Source: Escherichia coli (GTDB taxonomy: Bacteria; Pseudomonadota; Gammaproteobacteria; Enterobacterales; Enterobacteriaceae). Taken from it: a stretch of DNA of 64,000 bases. The position numbers and the translations under genes are program-made. The DNA lies in assembly GCF_003019035.1 (NCBI RefSeq), contig NZ_CP027447.1, one strand, 5' to 3'. Every line of letters starts with the position of its first letter. Within the stretch, counting starts at the first letter, position 1. Under the pieces are notes generated by a model, which was not told the DNA's origin, did no database searches, and worked only from the letters and a program-made list of their open reading frames with translations. Positions 4,618-24,732 of the stretch are shown piece by piece.

Positions 4618-5937
4618 TTAACCGTGTTTATTTTTCAGTTCAAAGCGTGGAGATACCAGACCATACAGTGTCCAACCAAGGAAGGTCACGATGGAACCGT
4701 ACAGCATGGCTTCTTCCCCGGATGAGTACAGCGCATAGAAACTGTACATCGCACCAACAAAGGCAACAAAGTTTGCTACTTTCGCTTTTGACGGTGGCAC
4801 ATTGGCGACCTGCTGAATAATGACTAACGCCGCCATCGACAGAATATACGGGATGATATTGGTCACCACGGCCAGGTTAACCAGCACGTTGAACTGGCTG
4901 TTCAGTGACGGGCTAATGGTCATCAGTGCCAATCCACTCTGAATAATCACAATGGTCAACATTCCCTGAACCGGTGCATCCACTTTGGTTACACGGGAGA
5001 AAATTTTAGGGAAGTAGCCTTCATCAGATGAAGATTTAAACACCTGGGCAATGGTGAACTGCCAGCCAAGCAGTGAACCGCAGCAGGACATCACCATCAG
5101 CGCCATAATGACTTTACCCACTTCCGGCGTGAACATCTGTGCGAAGGCCAGGCCAAATGGTGCCGTTGAATTTGCCAGCTCCATATTGGGCACAATCCCG
5201 GCAATCACGTTGGTGGAGACGATATAAATCACTGCCGCACCTAACGTACCGCCAAGGACTGCTATTGGCACGTTACGTTCCGGGTTTTCCACTACTTCGG
5301 CGTTGGCACAGGCAGACTCCAGACCGAGGAAAGCCCACAACGTCATGGCGATGGAGGAACCTACAGCGCTAAAGAACGGTACATGATGAGGGTTCCATGA
5401 GTTAGCGTACAGCGTCGGGCTAAACCAGAACCAGCCGATAATGCACAGACCGACGACCGGAATAATGACCCCCCACACAGTAATGCTACTGATTTGCCCG
5501 GTAATGCGCGCACCACCAAAGTTAGCCACGGTACAAATCCACAGCACTCCGATGGTCGCAAGACCAATCTGCACTGGCGACAAACTCGCGCCGAGCAGTT
5601 CGGTGCCGTAACCAACCGCCGAAATAGCAATTGCGACGTTAGCAATCAGCAGCGAGACACCGTAGGTGTAGTTCGCCATAAAGTTACCGGATTTACCGAA
5701 AGCATACTCGGCATAACCGCCCATACCACCTGATTTACGGCTGAACATGCCGCATTTTGCGAATGCCCATGCCAGCGCCATTGAGCCTACGGCAGTCACC
5801 AACCAGGAGATTATTGAGATTGTCCCAACTTCGGCAAGCTTTGTCGGCAGCATGATGATACCGGAGCCCATCATGTTGACCATCGTCAGTATGGTTAACT
5901 GAACGACGCCCATTTTGTTCGATTTAGCCTGACTCAT
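4618..5937 (-). CDS. potE: Putrescine-ornithine antiporter PotE (439 aa)
   Basis: ORF with APC-family membrane protein sequence MSQAKSNKMGVVQLTILTMVNMMGSGIIMLP; overlaps speF stop by 4 nt. Confidence 0.95.
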   Translation of the reverse strand: MSQAKSNKMGVVQLTILTMVNMMGSGIIMLPTKLAEVGTISIISWLVTAVGSMALAWAFAKCGMFSRKSGGMGGYAEYAFGKSGNFMANYTYGVSLLIANVAIAISAVGYGTELLGASLSPVQIGLATIGVLWICTVANFGGARITGQISSITVWGVIIPVVGLCIIGWFWFSPTLYANSWNPHHVPFFSAVGSSIAMTLWAFLGLESACANAEVVENPERNVPIAVLGGTLGAAVIYIVSTNVIAGIVPNMELANSTAPFGLAFAQMFTPEVGKVIMALMVMSCCGSLLGWQFTIAQVFKSSSDEGYFPKIFSRVTKVDAPVQGMLTIVIIQSGLALMTISPSLNSQFNVLVNLAVVTNIIPYILSMAALVIIQQVANVPPSKAKVANFVAFVGAMYSFYALYSSGEEAMLYGSIVTFLGWTLYGLVSPRFELKNKHG

Positions 5938-8132
5938 AATTTTTCCCCTTTCAACAGGATGCTTTGCGCATCACGAGGCTTGATGACATAGCACCAAACT
6001 TGCTTACGACCATCATGTTCTTCGATATAGACACCCTGAAGCTCCGGTGCAAAACCTGGCAGCAGGTTGATCCCTTCTTCCAGAGCGCTGAAGTAACGCA
6101 GAACAGCACCACCCCAGATTTCACCCGGAACAACACACAGCACACCCGGAGGATAAGGAAGCGCACCTTCTGCAGCGATACGGCCTTCTGCATCCGGCAG
6201 ACGAACCAGCTCCACTTCACCGCGTAAATAGGCGTAGTTGGCTTCTTGTGGATTCATGCTGACACGTGGGAAGTGTTCCTTACGAAACATCTCTTTTTGC
6301 AGTTGTTTCACGTTGTGACGGGCATACAAATCATGCATTTCCTGACACAACTGACGCAGGGTATAACCGGTGTAGCGCTCTTCATGCTGTTTGTAGATGG
6401 AAGGCAGTACTTCTGATAATGGCGCGTCGGACTCAAGCAGTTTTTCGAAGCGTACCAGCAGAGCAGCAAGTTGCTGAAGTTTGGCCATATCTTCTGCCGG
6501 AGTCAGCAGAAAGAGGATGGAGTTAAGATCGCATTTTTCCGGCACTACGCCATTTTCGCGCAGGAAGTTAGCAAGAATCGTCGCGGGTACACCGAACGCT
6601 TCATATTCGCCGTTACGTGCATCAATACCTGGGGTTGTCAGCAACAGTTTGCACGGATCGACAAAGTATTGATTCTCTGCATAGCCTTCAAAAGAATGCC
6701 AGTGCTCACCTGGTACAAACTGGAAGAAGCGCAGATCAACCGCAATTTGCGCTGTTTCATACGACTGCCAGGGTTTACCATCCACCAGTTCAGGTACGAA
6801 TGGACGAATATGCTGACAGTTATCGAGGATCAGTTTGCGGGCATTAATGCCATTTACCACACAATCCATCCACATATTACGACCGCTGACACCTTCATGC
6901 ATTTTGGCGTTGATATCCAGTGCGGCAAACAGCGGATAGAACGGGCTGGTGGAGGCATGCATCATAAAGGCGTTGTTCATGCGTTTGTGCGGTACATAAC
7001 GCTGTTGCCCTTTGATATGGCTGTCTTTTTTATGGATTTGTGAAGTCTGGGAAAAACCAGCCTGCTGTTTATGCACAGATTGCGTAACCAGAATACCCGG
7101 ATCGTTCTCATTAAGATCCAGCAACAGTGGTGAACAGTCCGCCATCATCGGGATAAACTGCTCATAGCCGACCCATGCGGAGTCAAAGAGGATGTAGTCA
7201 CACAGATGACCAATTTTATCCACCACCTGACGGGCGTTATAAATCGTACCGTCGTAAGTGCCTAGCTGAATAACGGCGAGGCGGAAAGGACGCGCCTCTT
7301 TTGCCCGCTGCGGTGCGACTTCTGTAATCAGTTCGCGCAGGTAATTTTCTTCGAAGCAGTGGGCATCAATACCACCGATAAAGCCATACGGGTTGCGTGC
7401 GGTTTCCAGATAAACTGGTGTTGCGCCAGCCTGTAGCAACGCTCCGTGGTGATTAGATTTATGGTTATTACGGTCAAACAGCACCAGATCCCCCGGTGTT
7501 AACAGGGCGTTTAAAACCACTTTGTTAGAAGATGAAGTGCCATTTAGAACGAAGTATGTTTTATCGGCATTAAACACTTTTGCCGCATGTTGCTGTGCAA
7601 TGCATGGCGCGCCTTCGTGAATCAGCAGATCGCCCATTGCCACATCCGCGTTGCACAAGTCAGCACGGAACAGCGCCTCACCAAAGTATTCCACAAACTG
7701 ATTCCCCGCCGGATGGCGACGGAAAAATTCGCCGCCCTGATGACCGGGGCAATCAAACGCGCTGTTACCCTGATTGACATAATCGACCAGTGCGCGGAAG
7801 AAGGGCGGGCGCAGTTGAGTTTCATAATGGCTGGCTGCGGTTTCTAACTGACGACCATAAAATTCTCGTCGCGATTCGCAATTCTCAAAGACACCCGAAA
7901 TACGGGGCAAATACTCTGCGGGTACACGTTCTTGATTTTCAGTAGCAATAAATACCGGGATGCCATAACCCGTGGCATCGATTTCATCGAGTTTTCCGCG
8001 TGTAACATCGTTGAGCGATAAAACTATTGCCGCCACATCGATATTACTGTTTTCATTAATATAGATACATTCTCGCTGCGTGGTAAAACAGTCCGGGCAA
8101 GAATCACTAACCGCAATTTTTAATTTTGACAT
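5934..8132 (-). CDS. speF: Inducible ornithine decarboxylase SpeF (732 aa)
   Basis: ORF 5934..8210 with start at MSKLKIAVSDSCPDC; PLP-dependent Orn/Lys/Arg decarboxylase; speF-potE operon. Confidence 0.95.
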   Translation of the reverse strand: MSKLKIAVSDSCPDCFTTQRECIYINENSNIDVAAIVLSLNDVTRGKLDEIDATGYGIPVFIATENQERVPAEYLPRISGVFENCESRREFYGRQLETAASHYETQLRPPFFRALVDYVNQGNSAFDCPGHQGGEFFRRHPAGNQFVEYFGEALFRADLCNADVAMGDLLIHEGAPCIAQQHAAKVFNADKTYFVLNGTSSSNKVVLNALLTPGDLVLFDRNNHKSNHHGALLQAGATPVYLETARNPYGFIGGIDAHCFEENYLRELITEVAPQRAKEARPFRLAVIQLGTYDGTIYNARQVVDKIGHLCDYILFDSAWVGYEQFIPMMADCSPLLLDLNENDPGILVTQSVHKQQAGFSQTSQIHKKDSHIKGQQRYVPHKRMNNAFMMHASTSPFYPLFAALDINAKMHEGVSGRNMWMDCVVNGINARKLILDNCQHIRPFVPELVDGKPWQSYETAQIAVDLRFFQFVPGEHWHSFEGYAENQYFVDPCKLLLTTPGIDARNGEYEAFGVPATILANFLRENGVVPEKCDLNSILFLLTPAEDMAKLQQLAALLVRFEKLLESDAPLSEVLPSIYKQHEERYTGYTLRQLCQEMHDLYARHNVKQLQKEMFRKEHFPRVSMNPQEANYAYLRGEVELVRLPDAEGRIAAEGALPYPPGVLCVVPGEIWGGAVLRYFSALEEGINLLPGFAPELQGVYIEEHDGRKQVWCYVIKPRDAQSILLKGEKL

Positions 8133-17243: not shown

Positions 17244-20200
17244 ATGAGCGGAAAACCGGCGGCGCGTCAGGGCGACATGACGCAGTATGGCGGTAGCATT
17301 GTTCAGGGTTCAGCCGGGGTACGTATTGGTGCTCCCACCGGCGTGGCCTGTTCGGTGTGCCCCGGCGGGGTGACGTCCGGCCATCCGGTCAATCCGCTGC
17401 TCGGTGCGAAGGTCCTTCCCGGCGAAACCGACCTTGCCCTGCCCGGCCCGCTGCCGTTCATCCTCTCCCGCACCTACAGCAGTTACCGGACAAAAACGCC
17501 CGCGCCGGTGGGGAGCCTCGGCCCCGGCTGGAAAATGCCCGCGGATATCCGCTTACAGCTGCGCGATAACACACTGATACTCAGTGATAACGGCGGCAGG
17601 AGCCTGTATTTTGAGCACCTGTTTCCCGGTGAGGACGGTTACAGCCGCAGCGAGTCACTCTGGCTGGTGCGCGGCGGCGTGGCGAAACTGGATGAAGGTC
17701 ACCGGCTGGCCGCACTCTGGCAGGCGCTGCCGGAAGAGCTTCGCCTGAGTCCGCATCGTTATCTGGCGACGAACAGTCCGCAGGGGCCGTGGTGGGTACT
17801 CGGCTGGTGTGAGCAGGTGCCGGAGGCGGATGAGGTGCTGCCCGCGCCGCTGCCGCCGTACCGGGTACTGACCGGGCTGGTGGACCGCTTCGGGCGCACA
17901 CAGACGTTTCACCGTGAGGCTGGCGGTGAATTCAGCGGCGAAATCACCGGCGTGACGGATGGTGCCGGGCGTCACTTCCGGCTGGTACTGACCACGCAGG
18001 CGCTGCGGGCAGAAGAGGCCCGGCAGCAGGCCATTTCCGGCGGGACGGAACCGTCCGCTTTTCCTGATACCCTGCCGGACTACACGGAATATGGCCGGGA
18101 CAACGGCATCCGCCTGTCCGCCGTGTGGCTGACGCACGACCCGGAATATCCGGACAACCTGCCAGCCGCGCCGCTGGTACGCTATGGCTGGACGCCACGC
18201 GGCGAACTGGCGGCGGTGTATGACCGCAGCGGCACACAGGTGCGCAGCTTTACTTACGATGATAAATACCGGGGCCGGATGGTGGCGCACCGTCACACGG
18301 GCCGGCCGGAAATCCGTTACCGTTACGACAGCGACGGGCGGGTGACAGAACAGCTAAACCCGGCAGGCTTAAGCTACACGTATCAGTATGAGAAAGACCG
18401 CATCACCATCACCGACAGCCTGGACCGCCGTGAAGTCCTGCACACGCAGGGCGAAGGCGGGCTGAAGCGGGTGGTGAAAAAGGAACACGCGGACGGCAGC
18501 GTCACGCAGAGTCAGTTTGACGCGGTGGGCAGGCTTAAGGCACAGACGGATGCCGCAGGCCGGACGACTGAGTACAGCCCGGATGTGGTGACGGGACTCA
18601 TCACGCGCATCACCACGCCGGATGGCAGGGCATCGGCGTTTTACTATAACCACCACAGCCAGTTAACGTCAGCCACCTGGCCTGACGGGCTGGAAATACG
18701 CCGGGAATATGATGAATCCGGCCGTCTGATTCAGGAAACCGCCCCTGACGGCGATATCACCCGCTACCGTTATGATAATCCACACAGTGACTTCCCCTGC
18801 GCAACGGAGGATGCCACCGGCAGCCGGAAAACCATGACGTGGAGCCGTTACGGTCAGTTGCTGACCTTCACCGACTGTTCCGGCTACCAGACCCGTTATG
18901 ACCATGACCGCTTCGGGCAGATGACGGCGGTGCACCGCGAGGAAGGCCTGAGCCAGTGCCGCGCATACGACAGCCGTGGACAGTTAATTGCGGTGAAAGA
19001 CACGCAGGGCCATGAAACGCGGTATGAATACAACGCCGCCGGTGACCTGACCGCCGTCATTGCCCCGGACGGCAGCAGAAACGGGGCACAGTACGATGCG
19101 TGGGGAAAGGCCGTCCGTACCACGCAGGGCGGGCTGACCCGCAGTATGGAATACGATGCTGCAGGACGGGTCATCCGCCTGACAAACGAAAACGGCAGCC
19201 ACACCACCTTCCGTTACGATGTACTCGACCGGCTGATACAGGAAACCGGCTTTGACGGCCGCACACAGCGTTACCACCACGACCTGACCGGCAAACTTAT
19301 CCGCAGCGAGGATGAGGGGCTGGTCACCCACTGGCACTATGACGAAGCAGACCGCCTCACGCAGCGCACCGTGAATGGCGAAACCGCAGAGCGGTGGCAG
19401 TATGACGAACGCGGCTGGCTGACAGGCATCAGCCATCTCAGCGAAGGGCACCGGGTGACGGTGCATTACAGGTATGATGAGAAAGGCCGCCTGACCGGTG
19501 AGCGCCAGACGGTGCATCACCCGCAGACGGAAGCACTGCTCTGGCAGCATGAAACCAGACATGCGTACAATGCGCAGGGGCTGGCGAACCGCTGTATACC
19601 GGACAGCCTGCCCGCCGTGGAATGGCTGACTTATGGCAGTGGTTACCTGGCAGGGATGAAGCTGGGTGACTCGCCCCTGGTGGAGTACACCCGCGACCGC
19701 CTGCACCGGGAAACGCTGCGCAGCTTCGGCCGTTATGAACTCACCACCGCTTATACCCCTGCCGGGCAGTTACAGAGCCAGCACCTGAACAGCCTGCAGT
19801 ATGACCGCGATTACACCTGGAACGACAACGGCGAACTCATTCGCATCAGCAGCCCGCGCCAGACCCGGAGTTACAGCTACAGCGACTCCGGCAGGCTGAC
19901 CGGCGTTCACACCACCGCAGCGAACCTGGATATCCGCATCCCGTATGCCACGGACCCGGCAGGTAACCGCCTGCCCGACCCGGAGCTGCACCCGGACAGC
20001 ACCCTCAGCATGTGGCCGGATAACCGTATCGCCCGTGACGCGCACTATCTTTACCGGTATGACCGTCACGGCAGGCTGACGGAGAAAACCGACCTCATCC
20101 CGGAAGGGGTTATCCGCACGGATGATGAGCGGACTCACCGGTACCATTACGACAGCCGGCACCGGCTGGTGCACTACACGCGGACACAATATGCAGAGCC

Positions 20201-21443
20201 GCTGGTCGAAAGTCGCTATCTTTACGACCCGCTGGGCCGCAGGGTGGCAAAACGGGTGTGGCGGCGTGAACGGGACCTGACGGGCTGGATGTCGCTGTCA
20301 CGGAAACCGGAAGTGACCTGGTACGGCTGGGACGGCGACCGGCTGACCACGATACAGAACGACAGAACCCGCATCCAGACGATTTATCAGCCGGGGAGCT
20401 TCACGCCACTCATCAGGGTCGAAACTGCCACCGGTGAGCTGGCGAAAACGCAGCGCCGCAGCCTGGCGGATGCGCTTCAGCAGTCCGGCGGCGAAAACGG
20501 TGGCAGTGTGGTGTTCCCGCCGGTGCTGGTGCAGATGCTCGACCGGCTGGAAAGTGAAATCCTGGCTGACCGGGTGAGTGAGGAAAGCCGCCGCTGGCTG
20601 GCATCGTGCGGCCTGACGGTGGCGCAGATGCAAAACCAGATGGACCCGGTGTACACACCGGCGCGAAAAATCCACCTGTACCACTGCGACCATCGCGGCC
20701 TGCCGCTGGCGCTTGTCAGCACGGAAGGGGCAACAGAATGGTGCGCAGAATACGATGAGTGGGGCAACCTGCTGAATGAAGAGAACCCGCACCAGCTGCA
20801 GCAGCTCATCCGCCTGCCGGGTCAGCAGTATGATGAGGAGTCCGGCCTGTATTACAACCGCCACCGCTATTATGACCCGCTGCAGGGGCGGTATATCACT
20901 CAGGATCCTATTGGGCTGAAGGGGGGATGGAATTTTTATCAGTATCCGTTGAATCCGGTTCAGTATATAGATTCAATGGGACTGGCATCAAAATATGGAC
21001 ACTTAAATAATGGCGGATATGGAGCGAGACCCAACAAACCGCCTACGCCCGATCCAAGTAAATTGCCAGACATAGCGAAACAATTAAGACTGCCATATCC
21101 TATTGACCAGGCCAGTAGTGCGCCTAATGTTTTCAAAACATTCTTCAGAGCATTAAGCCCTTACGACTACACACTGTATTGCAGGAAGTGGGTAAAACCA
21201 AATCTGACTTGTACGCCACAGGATGATCCCCAGTATCCAGGGATGGATACAAAGACAGCAAGTGATTACCTGCCACAGACAAATTGGCCAACAACTCAAT
21301 TACCACCAGGATATACTTGTGCAGAACCCTATTTATTCCCAGACATTAATAAACCCGATGGGCCAGCAACAGCAGGGATAGATGATTTGGGTGAAATTTT
21401 AGCTAAAATGAAACAGAGAACATCGAGAGGAATAAGAAAATGA
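17244..21443 (+). CDS. rhsC: Rhs family protein RhsC (1399 aa): N-terminal PAAR-like region, YD-repeat core, PxxxxDPxGL cleavage motif, variable C-terminal toxin tip
   Basis: Repeated YD motifs (YRYDxxGRL), conserved core ending ...[17 protein letters not shown], then about 170 aa Cys/Pro-rich tip; upstream context ybfA as for rhsC. Confidence 0.9.
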
Positions 21444-22009
21444 AAAGAATTTTGTTCTTTTTGCTGATGATATTTGTTAGTTTTGGTGTTATAGCTGATT
21501 GCGAAACACAAGCTAAAGATCAAGATTGCTTTACCATTTTCACTAAGGGTACTATTTTTTCCGCGTTTCCTGTCTTAAATAATAAAACCATATGGAGATG
21601 GTATCAGAATGAGGACATAGGTGAGTATTATTGGCAAACAGAACTTGGTATATGTAAAAATAACAAATTCACACCAAGCGGGGCGAGACTCTTAATTCGC
21701 GTCGGATCACTACGCCTTAATGAAAATCATGCAACCAAAGGAACGTTGCAGGAGTTGCTAAATACAGCAGAAAAAACGGCGTTTCTCGGCGATCGGTTTA
21801 GAAGTTATATAAGAGCGGGTATCTATCAAAAAAAGAGCAGTGATCCAGCTCAGTTGTTGGCAGTCCTTGATAATTCAATCATGGTTAAATATTTTAAAGA
21901 TGAGAAGCCAACTTATGCTCGAATGACAGCACATCTCCCGAACAAAGATGAGTCTTACGAATGTTTAACAAAAGTACAGCATGAACTGCTTCGTAGTGAA
22001 GAAAAATAA
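21440..22009 (+). CDS. Putative RhsC immunity protein with signal peptide (189 aa)
   Basis: ATGA overlap with rhsC stop; N-terminal signal peptide [19 protein letters not shown]; AT-rich. Confidence 0.7.
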
Positions 22010-22177
22010 AATCTCTTCCTGAGAAAATAAATTAACTATTCGAAAAAATATGTTCTTAATGGGTATCCAGGTACACCAGAAGGTCGATTTGGAAAAATGG
22101 ATTCCGATGGTAAGAATATCATATATTCTGAATGTAATGTTTTACCCACAACTTTTGAGATTCGATAGGTGTAGAGC

Positions 22178-22480
22178 ATGAGAAACTCACTAATATTACT
22201 TATTATGATATTGTTTACAATATCACACTCAGTATTTGGAAAAGAAAATTCAGTGGAAATTTTAGTAAATAGTCGTGAAATGGCTTTGGAATTATCATAT
22301 GTTTACATTAAATATGTATACGGGAAAGAAAAAGCAGAATTTCAGAAACCATATAGTATTACAGATGACAATAATTGTTGGAAAATCGAGGGAAAACAAC
22401 CGAAGACGTTAGGAGGAAATTTTACAATACTAATAGCGAAAAAAGATGGGCAAGTGTTGAATGTAATACACACAAAATAA
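22178..22480 (+). CDS. Small secreted hypothetical protein, possible orphan immunity protein (100 aa)
   Basis: Signal peptide MRNSLILLIMILFTISHSVFG; AT-rich; preceded at about 22060-22170 by an in-frame peptide-like remnant (GYPGTPEGRFGKMDSDGKNIIYSECNV) lacking a start. Confidence 0.45.
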   Translation: MRNSLILLIMILFTISHSVFGKENSVEILVNSREMALELSYVYIKYVYGKEKAEFQKPYSITDDNNCWKIEGKQPKTLGGNFTILIAKKDGQVLNVIHTK

Positions 22481-22823
22481 TCCACTGTACAGTCGATTCA
22501 AATATTTTACCAAGGTGTGTTTTGTAACAATTTTGTGTACAATATGACTCTACATATCGACGAAAAAACCACTTGATTTGACAGGAACACATTCAAAAAA
22601 ATTTCTTTATTCATTTCAGGAGCGATTTTCATCTGTTACTTGAAGTATCTGTGAGATTAAGTGACTCCCCCTAACGTCGTACTAAATAGTAATTACTGTC
22701 CATACCGGGAGCAGTATTCGGCGCTCCCCACATGCAGCAGAATAACCGCATCAGCGAAGATGTATTGTATTTTTACTATCACAATGTGTACGGACGGTTT
22801 ATGGAAAAGAATGAAAATTAGAT

Positions 22824-22992
22824 ACGCGATGGGGCGGCAGGTTACACGGTTATCACTACGATAGCCAATACTGGCTGGTGCATTACCGCCGTGAACAATA
22901 GGACGCCGTACTGCTGGAAATTTCTTACCTTTATGACTCCCCGCGCCGCCGTATTGGGAAACGGGAAGCAATCAAGATGAGGCTGATATAAT
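22824..22992 (+). pseudogene. Degraded Rhs core remnant with in-frame stop
   Basis: Translation YHYDSQYWLVHYRREQ*DAVLLEISYLYDSPRRRIGKRE parallels RhsC core [45 protein letters not shown]. Confidence 0.65.
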
Positions 22993-23031: not shown

Positions 23032-23433
23032 ATGTTTGATAGAATATATCTTGGTGATCGAGCAATAAAAAAAATTGAATTTTATTTATGGACTAAACAA
23101 ATTAGAATTCAGGTTAATTTAATCTCAAGGATAGCCTATGGTACAACAGAATGGAATTTTTATGATAATGAAGACTTAGAAGATGGTTATTTGGTATTTT
23201 CAGATGTTAGTTTCTTCAATATAACTCCTAATGGCTCTATTCCTGATGATTATATAATTTCAATAATTACAGATAATGTCAATGTTGAATATTTTGAATC
23301 AACTATAGTTGCAGTTGGACAAATTCCAAATACAAATTCTGGAGACATTGATAATATTGGTGAGTGTCAAATTTTCATCAGGTATAAACACAGCTGGATT
23401 GAGAATAAATTCAAAGAAAAAATAATTGAATAA
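23032..23433 (+). CDS. Hypothetical protein, possible orphan Rhs immunity protein (133 aa)
   Basis: AT-rich ORF with ATG start (gggggtaatATG) between two Rhs remnants; no signal peptide; no recognisable family. Confidence 0.4.
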   Translation: MFDRIYLGDRAIKKIEFYLWTKQIRIQVNLISRIAYGTTEWNFYDNEDLEDGYLVFSDVSFFNITPNGSIPDDYIISIITDNVNVEYFESTIVAVGQIPNTNSGDIDNIGECQIFIRYKHSWIENKFKEKIIE

Positions 23434-23548: not shown

Positions 23549-23739
23549 CCTGCCGCTGGCGCTTATCAGCACGGAAGGGGCAACAGAATGGTGCGCAGAA
23601 TACGATGAATGGGGCAACCTGCTGAATGAAGAGAACCCGCACCAGCTGCAGCAGCTCATCCGCCTGCCGGGTCAGCAGTATGATGAGGAGTCCGGCCTGT
23701 ATTACAACCGCCACCGCTATTATGACCCGCTGCAGGGGC
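23549..23739 (+). pseudogene. Orphan Rhs core 3' fragment, direct repeat of rhsC 20699-20889
   Basis: 191 bp with 2 mismatches versus rhsC (encodes [63 protein letters not shown]); no start codon; diverges after PLQG so the DPIGL motif and tip are lost. Confidence 0.85.
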
Positions 23740-23883: not shown

Positions 23884-24732
23884 ATGGAACTTAAAAAATT
23901 GATGGAGCATATTTCTATTATCCCAGATTACAGACAAGCCTGGAAAGTGGAACATAAATTGTCTGATATTCTACTGTTGACTATTTGTGACGTTATTTCT
24001 GGTGCAGAAGGTTGGGAAGATATAGAGGATTTTGGGGAAACACATCTCGATTTTTTAAAACAATATGGTGATTTTGAAAATGGTATTCCTGTTCACGATA
24101 CCATTGCCAGAGTTGTATCCTGTATCAGTCCTGCAAAATTTCACGAGTGCTTTATTAACTGGATGCGTGACTGCCATTCTTCAGATGATAAAGACGTCAT
24201 TGCAATTGATGGAAAAACGCTCCGGCACTCTTATGACAAGAGTCGCCGCAAGGGAGCGATTCATGTCATTAGTGCGTTCTCAACAATGCACAGTCTGGTC
24301 ATCGGACAGATCAAGACGGATGAGAAATCCAATGAGATCACAGCTATCCCGGAACTTCTTAACATGCTGAATATTAAAGGAAAAATCATCACAACTGATG
24401 CGATGGGTTGCCAGAAAGATATTGCAGAGAAGATACAAAAACAGGGCGGTGATTATTTATTCGCTGTAAAAGGAAACCAGGGGCGGCTAAATAAAGCCTT
24501 CGAGGAAAAATTTCCGCTGAAAGAATTAAATAATCCAGAGCATGGCAGTTACGCAATGAGTGAAAAGAGTCACGGCAGAGAAGAAATCCGTCTTCATATT
24601 GTTTGCGATGTCCCTGATGAACTTATTGATTTCACGTTTGAATGGAAAGGGCAGCCATGGACAGAAAATATCTGGCGTCAGTCCTTGCGGGGAGCGTGCT
24701 TTCGTAATTTTGCCCTGCTACAACAGGATTAA
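23884..24732 (+). mobile_element. H-repeat-associated protein / ISAs1-family transposase, apparently C-terminally truncated (282 aa)
   Basis: [52 protein letters not shown] typical of E. coli H-rpt (YbfD/YhhI) proteins; shorter than the full-length family (~378 aa). Confidence 0.75.

Follow-up and report, generated by a model that had tools for sequence, protein, structure and literature searches.

The element considered here is a probable Rhs polymorphic toxin/immunity pair, encoded by rhsC and the overlapping gene ybfC, in a 64,000-nucleotide stretch of the Escherichia coli contig NZ_CP027447.1 (assembly GCF_003019035.1). This whole stretch is referred to as the window, and positions are counted from its first letter. 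The locus has the order kdpFA-ybfA-rhsC-...-ybgA-phrB, with kdp and ybfA on one flank and ybgA and phrB on the other. An intact rhsC open reading frame (ORF) runs on the plus strand from 17244 to 21443 and encodes a protein of 1399 residues. The ybfC gene (21440-22009, plus strand) encodes 189 residues and overlaps the rhsC stop codon, creating the arrangement ATGA. The component features are collected in Table 1.

The RhsC shell and the rhsC-ybfC overlap

Most of RhsC is an Rhs shell. The RHS_core equivalog model of NCBIfam (NF041261) spans residues 1-1247 with a score of 2630.8 bits against a cutoff of 2000, the YD_repeat_2x and Rhs_assc_core models also match, and Pfam places DUF6531 at residues 46-123. 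The RhsC protein of E. coli K-12 is 95% identical over residues 1-1249 of the window protein, and the identity stops at residue 1249. The intact RhsC of O157:H7 is colinear with the window protein, with 41 substitutions and no frameshifted stretch. The core closes with the motif DPIGL, which in solved Rhs effectors is the site of C-terminal self-cleavage; by analogy with those effectors, RhsC of the window would cleave itself at the same motif. The GC content is 63% in the core, 43% in the tip that follows it and 37% in ybfC, and the drop after DPIGL coincides exactly with the start of the tip. A YD-repeat RHS core shell, and a core that ends in DPxGL and is followed by a variable tip of other base composition, are the features by which Rhs polymorphic toxins are defined, and both are found in the window.

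Table 1. Features of the rhsC-ybfC locus and of the region downstream, in window coordinates.
Feature	Position	Strand	Basis
RhsC core: short PAAR-like N-terminal motif, DUF6531, YD-repeat shell, Rhs-associated core	17244..20918	+	NF041261, Pfam, K-12 identity
DPIGL, conserved Rhs core end (residues 1221-1225)	20904..20918	+	position located in sequence
Conserved post-core linker, common to other Rhs tips	20919..20987	+	aligns with Rhs_assc_core, RHS_core model ends and PDB Rhs chains; in K-12 RhsC up to residue 1249
Variable Pro-rich linker	20988..21083	+	taken as variable because it is not kept in distant members, whose profile matches begin only at position 33-34
Toxin domain proper (putative), about 115-119 residues	21084..21440	+	family alignment A5, profile search, composition
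Shine-Dalgarno sequence GAGAGGA for ybfC, inside the end of rhsC	21425..21431	+	read from sequence; 8-nucleotide spacing to ATG
YbfC signal peptide, predicted signal peptidase I cut after VIA	21440..21496	+	rule-based check
Mature YbfC, predicted all-beta sandwich, presumed periplasmic immunity protein	21497..22009 (stop codon included)	+	
Open frame just 5' of the NTF2 gene, reads NGYPGTPEGRFGKMDSDGKNIIYSECNVLPTTFEIR then stop	22031-22168	+	
Orphan gene, RefSeq 'NTF2 fold immunity protein'	22178-22480 (RefSeq start equivalent 22253)	+	annotation
Degraded Rhs core-like stretch, HGYHYDSQYWLVHYRREQ stop DAVLLEISYLYDSPRRRIGKRE	22800-22960, frame of 22479	+	resembles RhsC residues about 985-1020
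133-residue ORF, RefSeq DUF6258 family protein	23032-23433	+	annotation
Orphan Rhs core fragment, ends RYYDPLQG, just short of DPIGL	23550-23738	+	
Truncated ISAs1 (H-repeat, ybfD-like) transposase gene, after the orphan core fragment	23884-24732	+	

The tip of RhsC

A first-pass annotation of this DNA, made from the letters alone, described a Cys- and Pro-rich C-terminal domain of approximately 170 residues after DPIGL. The tip in fact comprises 174 residues, in good agreement with that length, and begins at nucleotide 20919; the start of 20950 given in the annotation lies about 30 nucleotides inside it. Of the two compositional claims, the Pro enrichment holds (24 of 174 residues, or 13.8%, versus 5.4% in the core; p about 1e-5), whereas the Cys enrichment does not, with 3 of 174 residues (1.7%; binomial p about 0.2-0.3). 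Two of these three Cys residues are invariant across the tip family, and the third is nearly so.

The family shares the motifs SPYDYTxYCxKW, LTC, PGxDxKTxxDYxP, (I/L)PxGYxC and YxFP(D/E), an AxAGxDD helix, and a basic C-terminal RGxRK. In the family alignment (A5), S25, P26, C33, W36, P74, C79, A97 and D101 are invariant, and D28, Y29, C43, D61 and G76 are nearly invariant. There is no His in the 119-residue domain, and no His column is conserved anywhere in the tip family. The tip is hydrophilic, with a grand average of hydropathy of -0.78, and no segment is transmembrane-like, the highest 19-residue Kyte-Doolittle hydropathy being 0.14. Two candidate activities were rejected on such properties: a Cys-His amidase (papain-like or NlpC-P60, as in Tae and TseH), since the domain has no His, and a pore-forming or membrane-inserting toxin, since the composition provides no hydrophobic or amphipathic spanning helices. 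Within E. coli, in comparisons with enough substitutions, the tip has a ratio of nonsynonymous to synonymous substitution rates (dN/dS) of 0.08-0.28, and ybfC one of 0.14-0.28, although counts are small; both sequences are thus under purifying selection.

Searches against known families did not place the tip. It has no Pfam match even at E<=10, nucleases and deaminases included, and none of 14 tip family members, each searched singly, matches at E<=0.001. In NCBIfam, PADLOC and PHROGs the tip matches nothing beyond the shared Rhs core end, and PDB sequences, searched with the single tip sequence and with the family profile, returned just that core end or noise. Described toxin families, including Ntox/Tox families, nucleases, deaminases, ADP-ribosyltransferases and amidases, gave no significant profile match. 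These results bear out the first-pass statements that the tip is uncharacterised and has no recognisable nuclease or deaminase motif, and the domain searches of the tip and of its partner, both negative, likewise turned up no cytoplasmic nuclease family.

The YbfC partner

The N-terminus of YbfC consists of MKR, a 15-residue hydrophobic core, and VIA followed by Asp, a classic Sec layout with an AxA site at residue 19. The n-region carries charges of +2/-0, and the 10-residue hydropathy is 3.49. The same order of positive charge, hydrophobic core and AxA-type cleavage site, the last lying near residue 19-23, is found in 27 of 27 YbfC relatives examined. Both the overlapping 189-residue gene and the cleavable signal peptide that had been read at this position therefore stand. 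No membrane segment follows the signal peptide in the mature protein. Two Cys residues, C30 and C175, are kept in all of ten sequences whose identity to YbfC of the window is just 19-61%, a pattern that fits one putative disulfide in an exported protein. YbfC as a lipoprotein was rejected for E. coli, where I-A-D-C has Asp at position -1 of the lipobox ([LVI][ASTVI][GAS]C). A lipobox-like LASC, IAAC or ISAC occurs in some Citrobacter, Kluyvera and Salmonella homologues, and several distant homologues lack a Cys at this position.

As with the tip, YbfC has no match in Pfam, NCBIfam, PADLOC, PHROGs or PDB sequences. Three fold searches returned just a generic beta-sandwich and uncharacterised relatives, and no specific structural or profile match was found to the known immunity folds (Tsi, Tai, lysozyme inhibitors and Imm families).

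Conservation of the tip-partner pair

Searched exhaustively by profile, 1.84 billion representative proteins yielded 28 relatives of the tip. All of those with upstream sequence follow Rhs core ends, and they occur in Enterobacteriaceae and Burkholderiales. A scan of one genome per species placed the family in Phytobacter, Acidovorax, Ralstonia and Paracidovorax. Two contigs of 1.4 and 2.4 kilobases (L014 and L015), from metagenome bins named Flavobacterium psychrophilum and Candidatus Nanosynbacter, carry tips 97-99% identical to that of E. coli, and are most simply explained as E. coli contamination of the bins.

The gene downstream of the tip was inspected at nine loci, namely those of the window, K-12, Acidovorax and Ralstonia and those on five contigs from metagenomes or genomes. 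In all nine, a YbfC-like gene of 188-207 codons, with a signal peptide and the two invariant Cys residues, directly follows the tip, and in the window this gene overlaps rhsC. The tips themselves are about 37-56% identical in pairwise comparisons of six of the nine loci. Such strict synteny suggests that the downstream gene is the immunity partner, as the first-pass annotation had proposed, and an immunity role is presumed for it here. In Acidovorax, the tip is borne on a full-length Rhs protein, while at the Ralstonia locus an orphan tip and its partner are accompanied by another, partial partner and by a PAAR gene. Genes for vgrG, DUF2169 and PAAR adjoin relatives (L003 and L018), one metagenome locus having vgrG, DUF2169 and a PAAR-like gene beside its array. 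On another contig (L006), an extra stand-alone YbfC-like gene at 5404-5973 directly follows the tip-partner pair. Its product is 30% identical to YbfC and has a signal peptide, and the gene has the appearance of an orphan immunity gene from the YbfC family.

Distribution in E. coli

YbfC of the window is 93% identical to K-12 YbfC. In K-12, the stretch between ybfB and ybfC holds a fragment known as ybfO, for which the annotation gives an incomplete RHS core protein; over the 506 residues of this fragment, the tip is 98.4% identical. Neither this correspondence of the module to the K-12 ybfO-ybfC orphan, nor the identity of the partner as ybfC, had been recognised in the first pass. In O157:H7, the same tip and ybfC are carried on the main full-length rhsC, as in the window. 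Overall, the tip and ybfC occur jointly in 3506 of 5426 complete E. coli genomes, at a query coverage of at least 80%. In strain 22AR0747, the tip-ybfC block and two downstream orphan immunity genes are found at the nikR-yhhJ (rhsB) locus, and the cassette thus moves between Rhs elements. For the orphan module, which is silent in K-12 and lies behind another tip there and in most other E. coli of the sampled listing, the most plausible interpretation is a retained immunity gene together with a spare tip for recombination.

The RhsC protein of K-12 (L001, 2474-6993) ends in a different, Cys-rich domain with 9 Cys in 150 residues, followed by ybfB, the product of which is a small membrane-bound protein. 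This constitutes a second uncharacterised envelope-type pair at the rhsC locus, and the description of the window tip as Cys-rich may stem from it. In strain SCU-301 (L002, 2348-6544), the tip region is 100% identical to that of the window, but rhsC is annotated as frameshifted. Upstream of the tip the two sequences are out of register, so that the window is either from a different strain or separated from SCU-301 by an indel.

Functional work on ybfC, ybfO or RhsC was not found in the literature, where mentions of ybfC label it an uncharacterised or putative secreted protein. The sole paper found on the tip is an in-silico study of enterohaemorrhagic E. coli, in which the tip threads weakly to VipE (TM-score 0.57) and the partner has no domain. 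Transcripts of both rhsC and ybfC are present in Shiga toxin-producing E. coli (STEC; PMC6033998). In a 2026 survey, 45 new 'STox' toxin families were defined among the type VI effectors of Salmonella (PMC12994826). Since the tip is also present in Salmonella, it may be one of these 45 families.

A probable periplasmic site of action

RhsC and YbfC are best read as an Rhs polymorphic toxin/immunity pair, with a toxin domain from a small undescribed family. The YD-repeat shell of RhsC would enclose the C-terminal 174 residues and free them by a cut after DPIGL, as in solved Rhs effectors. In strains with a type VI secretion system, loaded RhsC would be fired into a neighbouring Gram-negative cell, where the Pro-rich domain of about 119 residues would act in the periplasm or envelope rather than in the cytoplasm, and where its conserved Cys pair could oxidise to a disulfide. 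YbfC would be made by coupled translation from its overlapping start, exported by Sec and cleaved after VIA. As a disulfide-bonded beta-sandwich, it would then bind and block incoming toxin in the periplasm, protecting cells that carry the module. An action in the periplasm or envelope, with binding by YbfC there, is suggested by the exported disulfide-bearing partner, by the invariant Cys pair of the tip, and by the absence of a cytoplasmic-enzyme signature. The first-pass annotation had drawn the same conclusion from the export of the partner; its argument is reasonable, and is strengthened by the Cys pairs in both proteins, although the site of action is still something that we infer. As a whole, the reading of a periplasm-acting toxin with periplasmic immunity is given a probability of about 0.6.

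Several observations weigh against it. The signal peptides were called by rule and by conservation. Modelled with AlphaFold2 from a 10-sequence alignment, the tip gave a structure of low confidence (predicted local distance difference test score of 46.9). The invariant polar residues are few, so that they point to no particular chemistry for the tip. Divergence of tip and partner is uncorrelated across six pairs, a tiny sample (Spearman 0.24, p 0.39), and the claim made here is thus limited to conserved pairing and does not extend to measured co-evolution. Delivery is a further difficulty. The PAAR match of RhsC is weak and partial (Pfam; residues 2-20, E 0.18, model positions 51-69 of 70), no type VI genes (vgrG, eagR and others) were found near rhsC in the window, and secretion genes are absent from the window as a whole. 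K-12 likewise has no type VI genes nearby, and is not known to have a type VI system. The module is also placed as an orphan in most E. coli of the sampled listing.

The tip domain has no His, no hydrophobic helix and no known catalytic signature, and is therefore favoured either to bind or inhibit some component of the envelope, or to be a cell-wall or lipid enzyme with a new fold. The enzyme, a sub-case of the periplasmic reading, might for instance act on peptidoglycan or lipid II by Asp/Cys chemistry. Soluble all-beta periplasmic immunity proteins are generally regarded as typical for type VI effectors that attack the cell wall, and the invariant or nearly invariant D28, D61, D101 and S25, together with the three Cys residues, could form an active site. 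Against such an enzyme, no amidase, muramidase, transpeptidase or lipase family was matched, the absence of His excludes the usual Cys-His dyad, the domain is very small, Pro-rich and poorly predicted, and YbfC has no specific match to Tsi, Tai or lysozyme-inhibitor structures. A new-fold enzyme is thus a tentative proposal, with chances well below even. Somewhat less probable again is a new, disulfide-stabilised and non-enzymatic fold that binds and blocks an essential machine exposed to the periplasm, for instance a cell-wall synthase or the machinery that assembles outer-membrane proteins or lipopolysaccharide, with YbfC as a sequestering decoy.

It is also conceivable, if rather unlikely, that the real target is cytoplasmic, and that YbfC catches the toxin during periplasmic transit after type VI delivery. 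Interception in transit would make the location of an exported immunity protein uninformative about the site of action. In type VI delivery, many effectors are generally considered to reach the periplasm first, and the conserved basic C-terminus RGxRK could serve an interaction with nucleic acid or with membranes. In addition, the Salmonella survey describes Rhs repeats as usually fused to cytoplasm-acting toxins (PMC12994826). By the same statement, the periplasmic partner is a distinguishing feature of the pair in the window. Against a cytoplasmic target, known cytoplasm-acting toxins of Rhs and contact-dependent inhibition systems are generally understood to have cytoplasmic immunity proteins, and a published table gives the partners of nucleases as 'No' for signal peptide. 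The tip also lacks His, any segment for membrane entry, and the signatures of nucleases, deaminases and ADP-ribosyltransferases, and its conserved Cys pair suits an oxidising compartment.

That the E. coli module is an inactive relic, with an undelivered tip and with ybfC a carried-along orphan or a gene of non-immunity envelope function, is very doubtful, for although most E. coli of the sampled listing have a promoterless orphan fragment like that of K-12, a strain generally held to lack a type VI system, and although the best-matching strain, SCU-301, has an rhsC annotated as frameshifted and the PAAR motif is weak, the tip is borne on an intact full-length rhsC in the window and in O157:H7, dN/dS is low for both genes, synteny of tip and YbfC is strict across two proteobacterial classes, and STEC transcribes rhsC and ybfC (PMC6033998).

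Remnants downstream of ybfC

The region between ybfC and the ISAs1 transposase gene holds a series of orphan and decayed genes (Table 1). In the case of the NTF2 gene, the longer ORF beginning at 22178 adds MRNSLILLIMILFTISHSVFG, a signal-peptide-like sequence that is excluded by the RefSeq start, a GTG at codon 26; the true start of this gene is thus uncertain. The short open frame that precedes it may be the C-terminal remnant of a displaced tip, for which the NTF2 protein would be the immunity gene product. The degraded core-like stretch is an older, decayed Rhs remnant lying between orphan immunity genes, the second of these probably being the DUF6258 ORF, which in 22AR0747 moves with the tip-ybfC-NTF2 block to the rhsB locus. 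The orphan Rhs core fragment has lost its own tip, which appears to have been removed by the ISAs1 insertion.

Comparison with known systems

As a kind of system, the pair in the window is well known; what is new is the family, and the probably periplasmic site of action is less usual for an Rhs tip. The analysis gives a concrete and testable role to ybfC and the ybfO fragment, genes present in roughly two of every three complete E. coli genomes, and flags an Rhs toxin as probably periplasmic, whereas Rhs shells are usually said to carry toxins that act in the cytoplasm. It adds one further uncharacterised tip to the hundreds in polymorphic toxin systems, and the general biology is not new. 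If the envelope target is a new one, a small His-free domain could point to a new antibacterial vulnerability, and if the tip is a non-enzymatic binder, ybfO/ybfC would be the first pair in a new class of envelope inhibitors that are delivered by Rhs proteins.

The closest relatives are the K-12 ybfO and ybfC genes, which are essentially the same as the window tip and ybfC. They differ in placement, the K-12 tip being a 5'-truncated fragment behind rhsC-ybfB, whereas that of the window is on the intact main rhsC. More broadly, the window resembles the Rhs polymorphic toxins with orphan modules, represented by RhsA-E of E. coli, the Rhs proteins of Salmonella, Dickeya and Enterobacter, and the solved shells 7q97 and 8qjc. 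It shares with these an RHS_core shell, a DPxGL end, a variable tip of low GC content and an overlapping partner gene, as well as a stack of orphan tip and immunity remnants, here ending at ISAs1, and the occurrence of the same tip on different Rhs loci. It differs from them in that its tip belongs to no described toxin family and its partner is exported. Characterised Rhs tips are for the most part nucleases, ADP-ribosyltransferases or NADases, and their immunity proteins are cytoplasmic. The Salmonella survey makes the general statement that Rhs repeats usually carry effectors that act in the cytoplasm (PMC12994826).

With the periplasmic pairs of type VI systems (Tae/Tai, Tge/Tgi, Tle/Tli, Tlde1 and Tox-Act1/Imm-Act1), the window pair has in common a signal-peptide-bearing immunity protein, which in those systems neutralises the effector in the periplasm. 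For instance, the toxicity of Tox-Act1 requires periplasmic targeting, according to the Salmonella survey (PMC12994826). The window pair has no sequence or profile similarity to any of these, however, its tip has no Cys-His dyad, and the tip is fused to an Rhs shell, whereas theirs are small cargo effectors. Small envelope-acting type VI toxins also include those of the Tse5-CT and Ssp6 types, and Tse5, too, is borne on an Rhs protein. In these toxins the helices are hydrophobic or of the glycine-zipper type, and the immunity proteins are bound to the membrane, whereas the tip of the window is hydrophilic and mature YbfC has no membrane segment.

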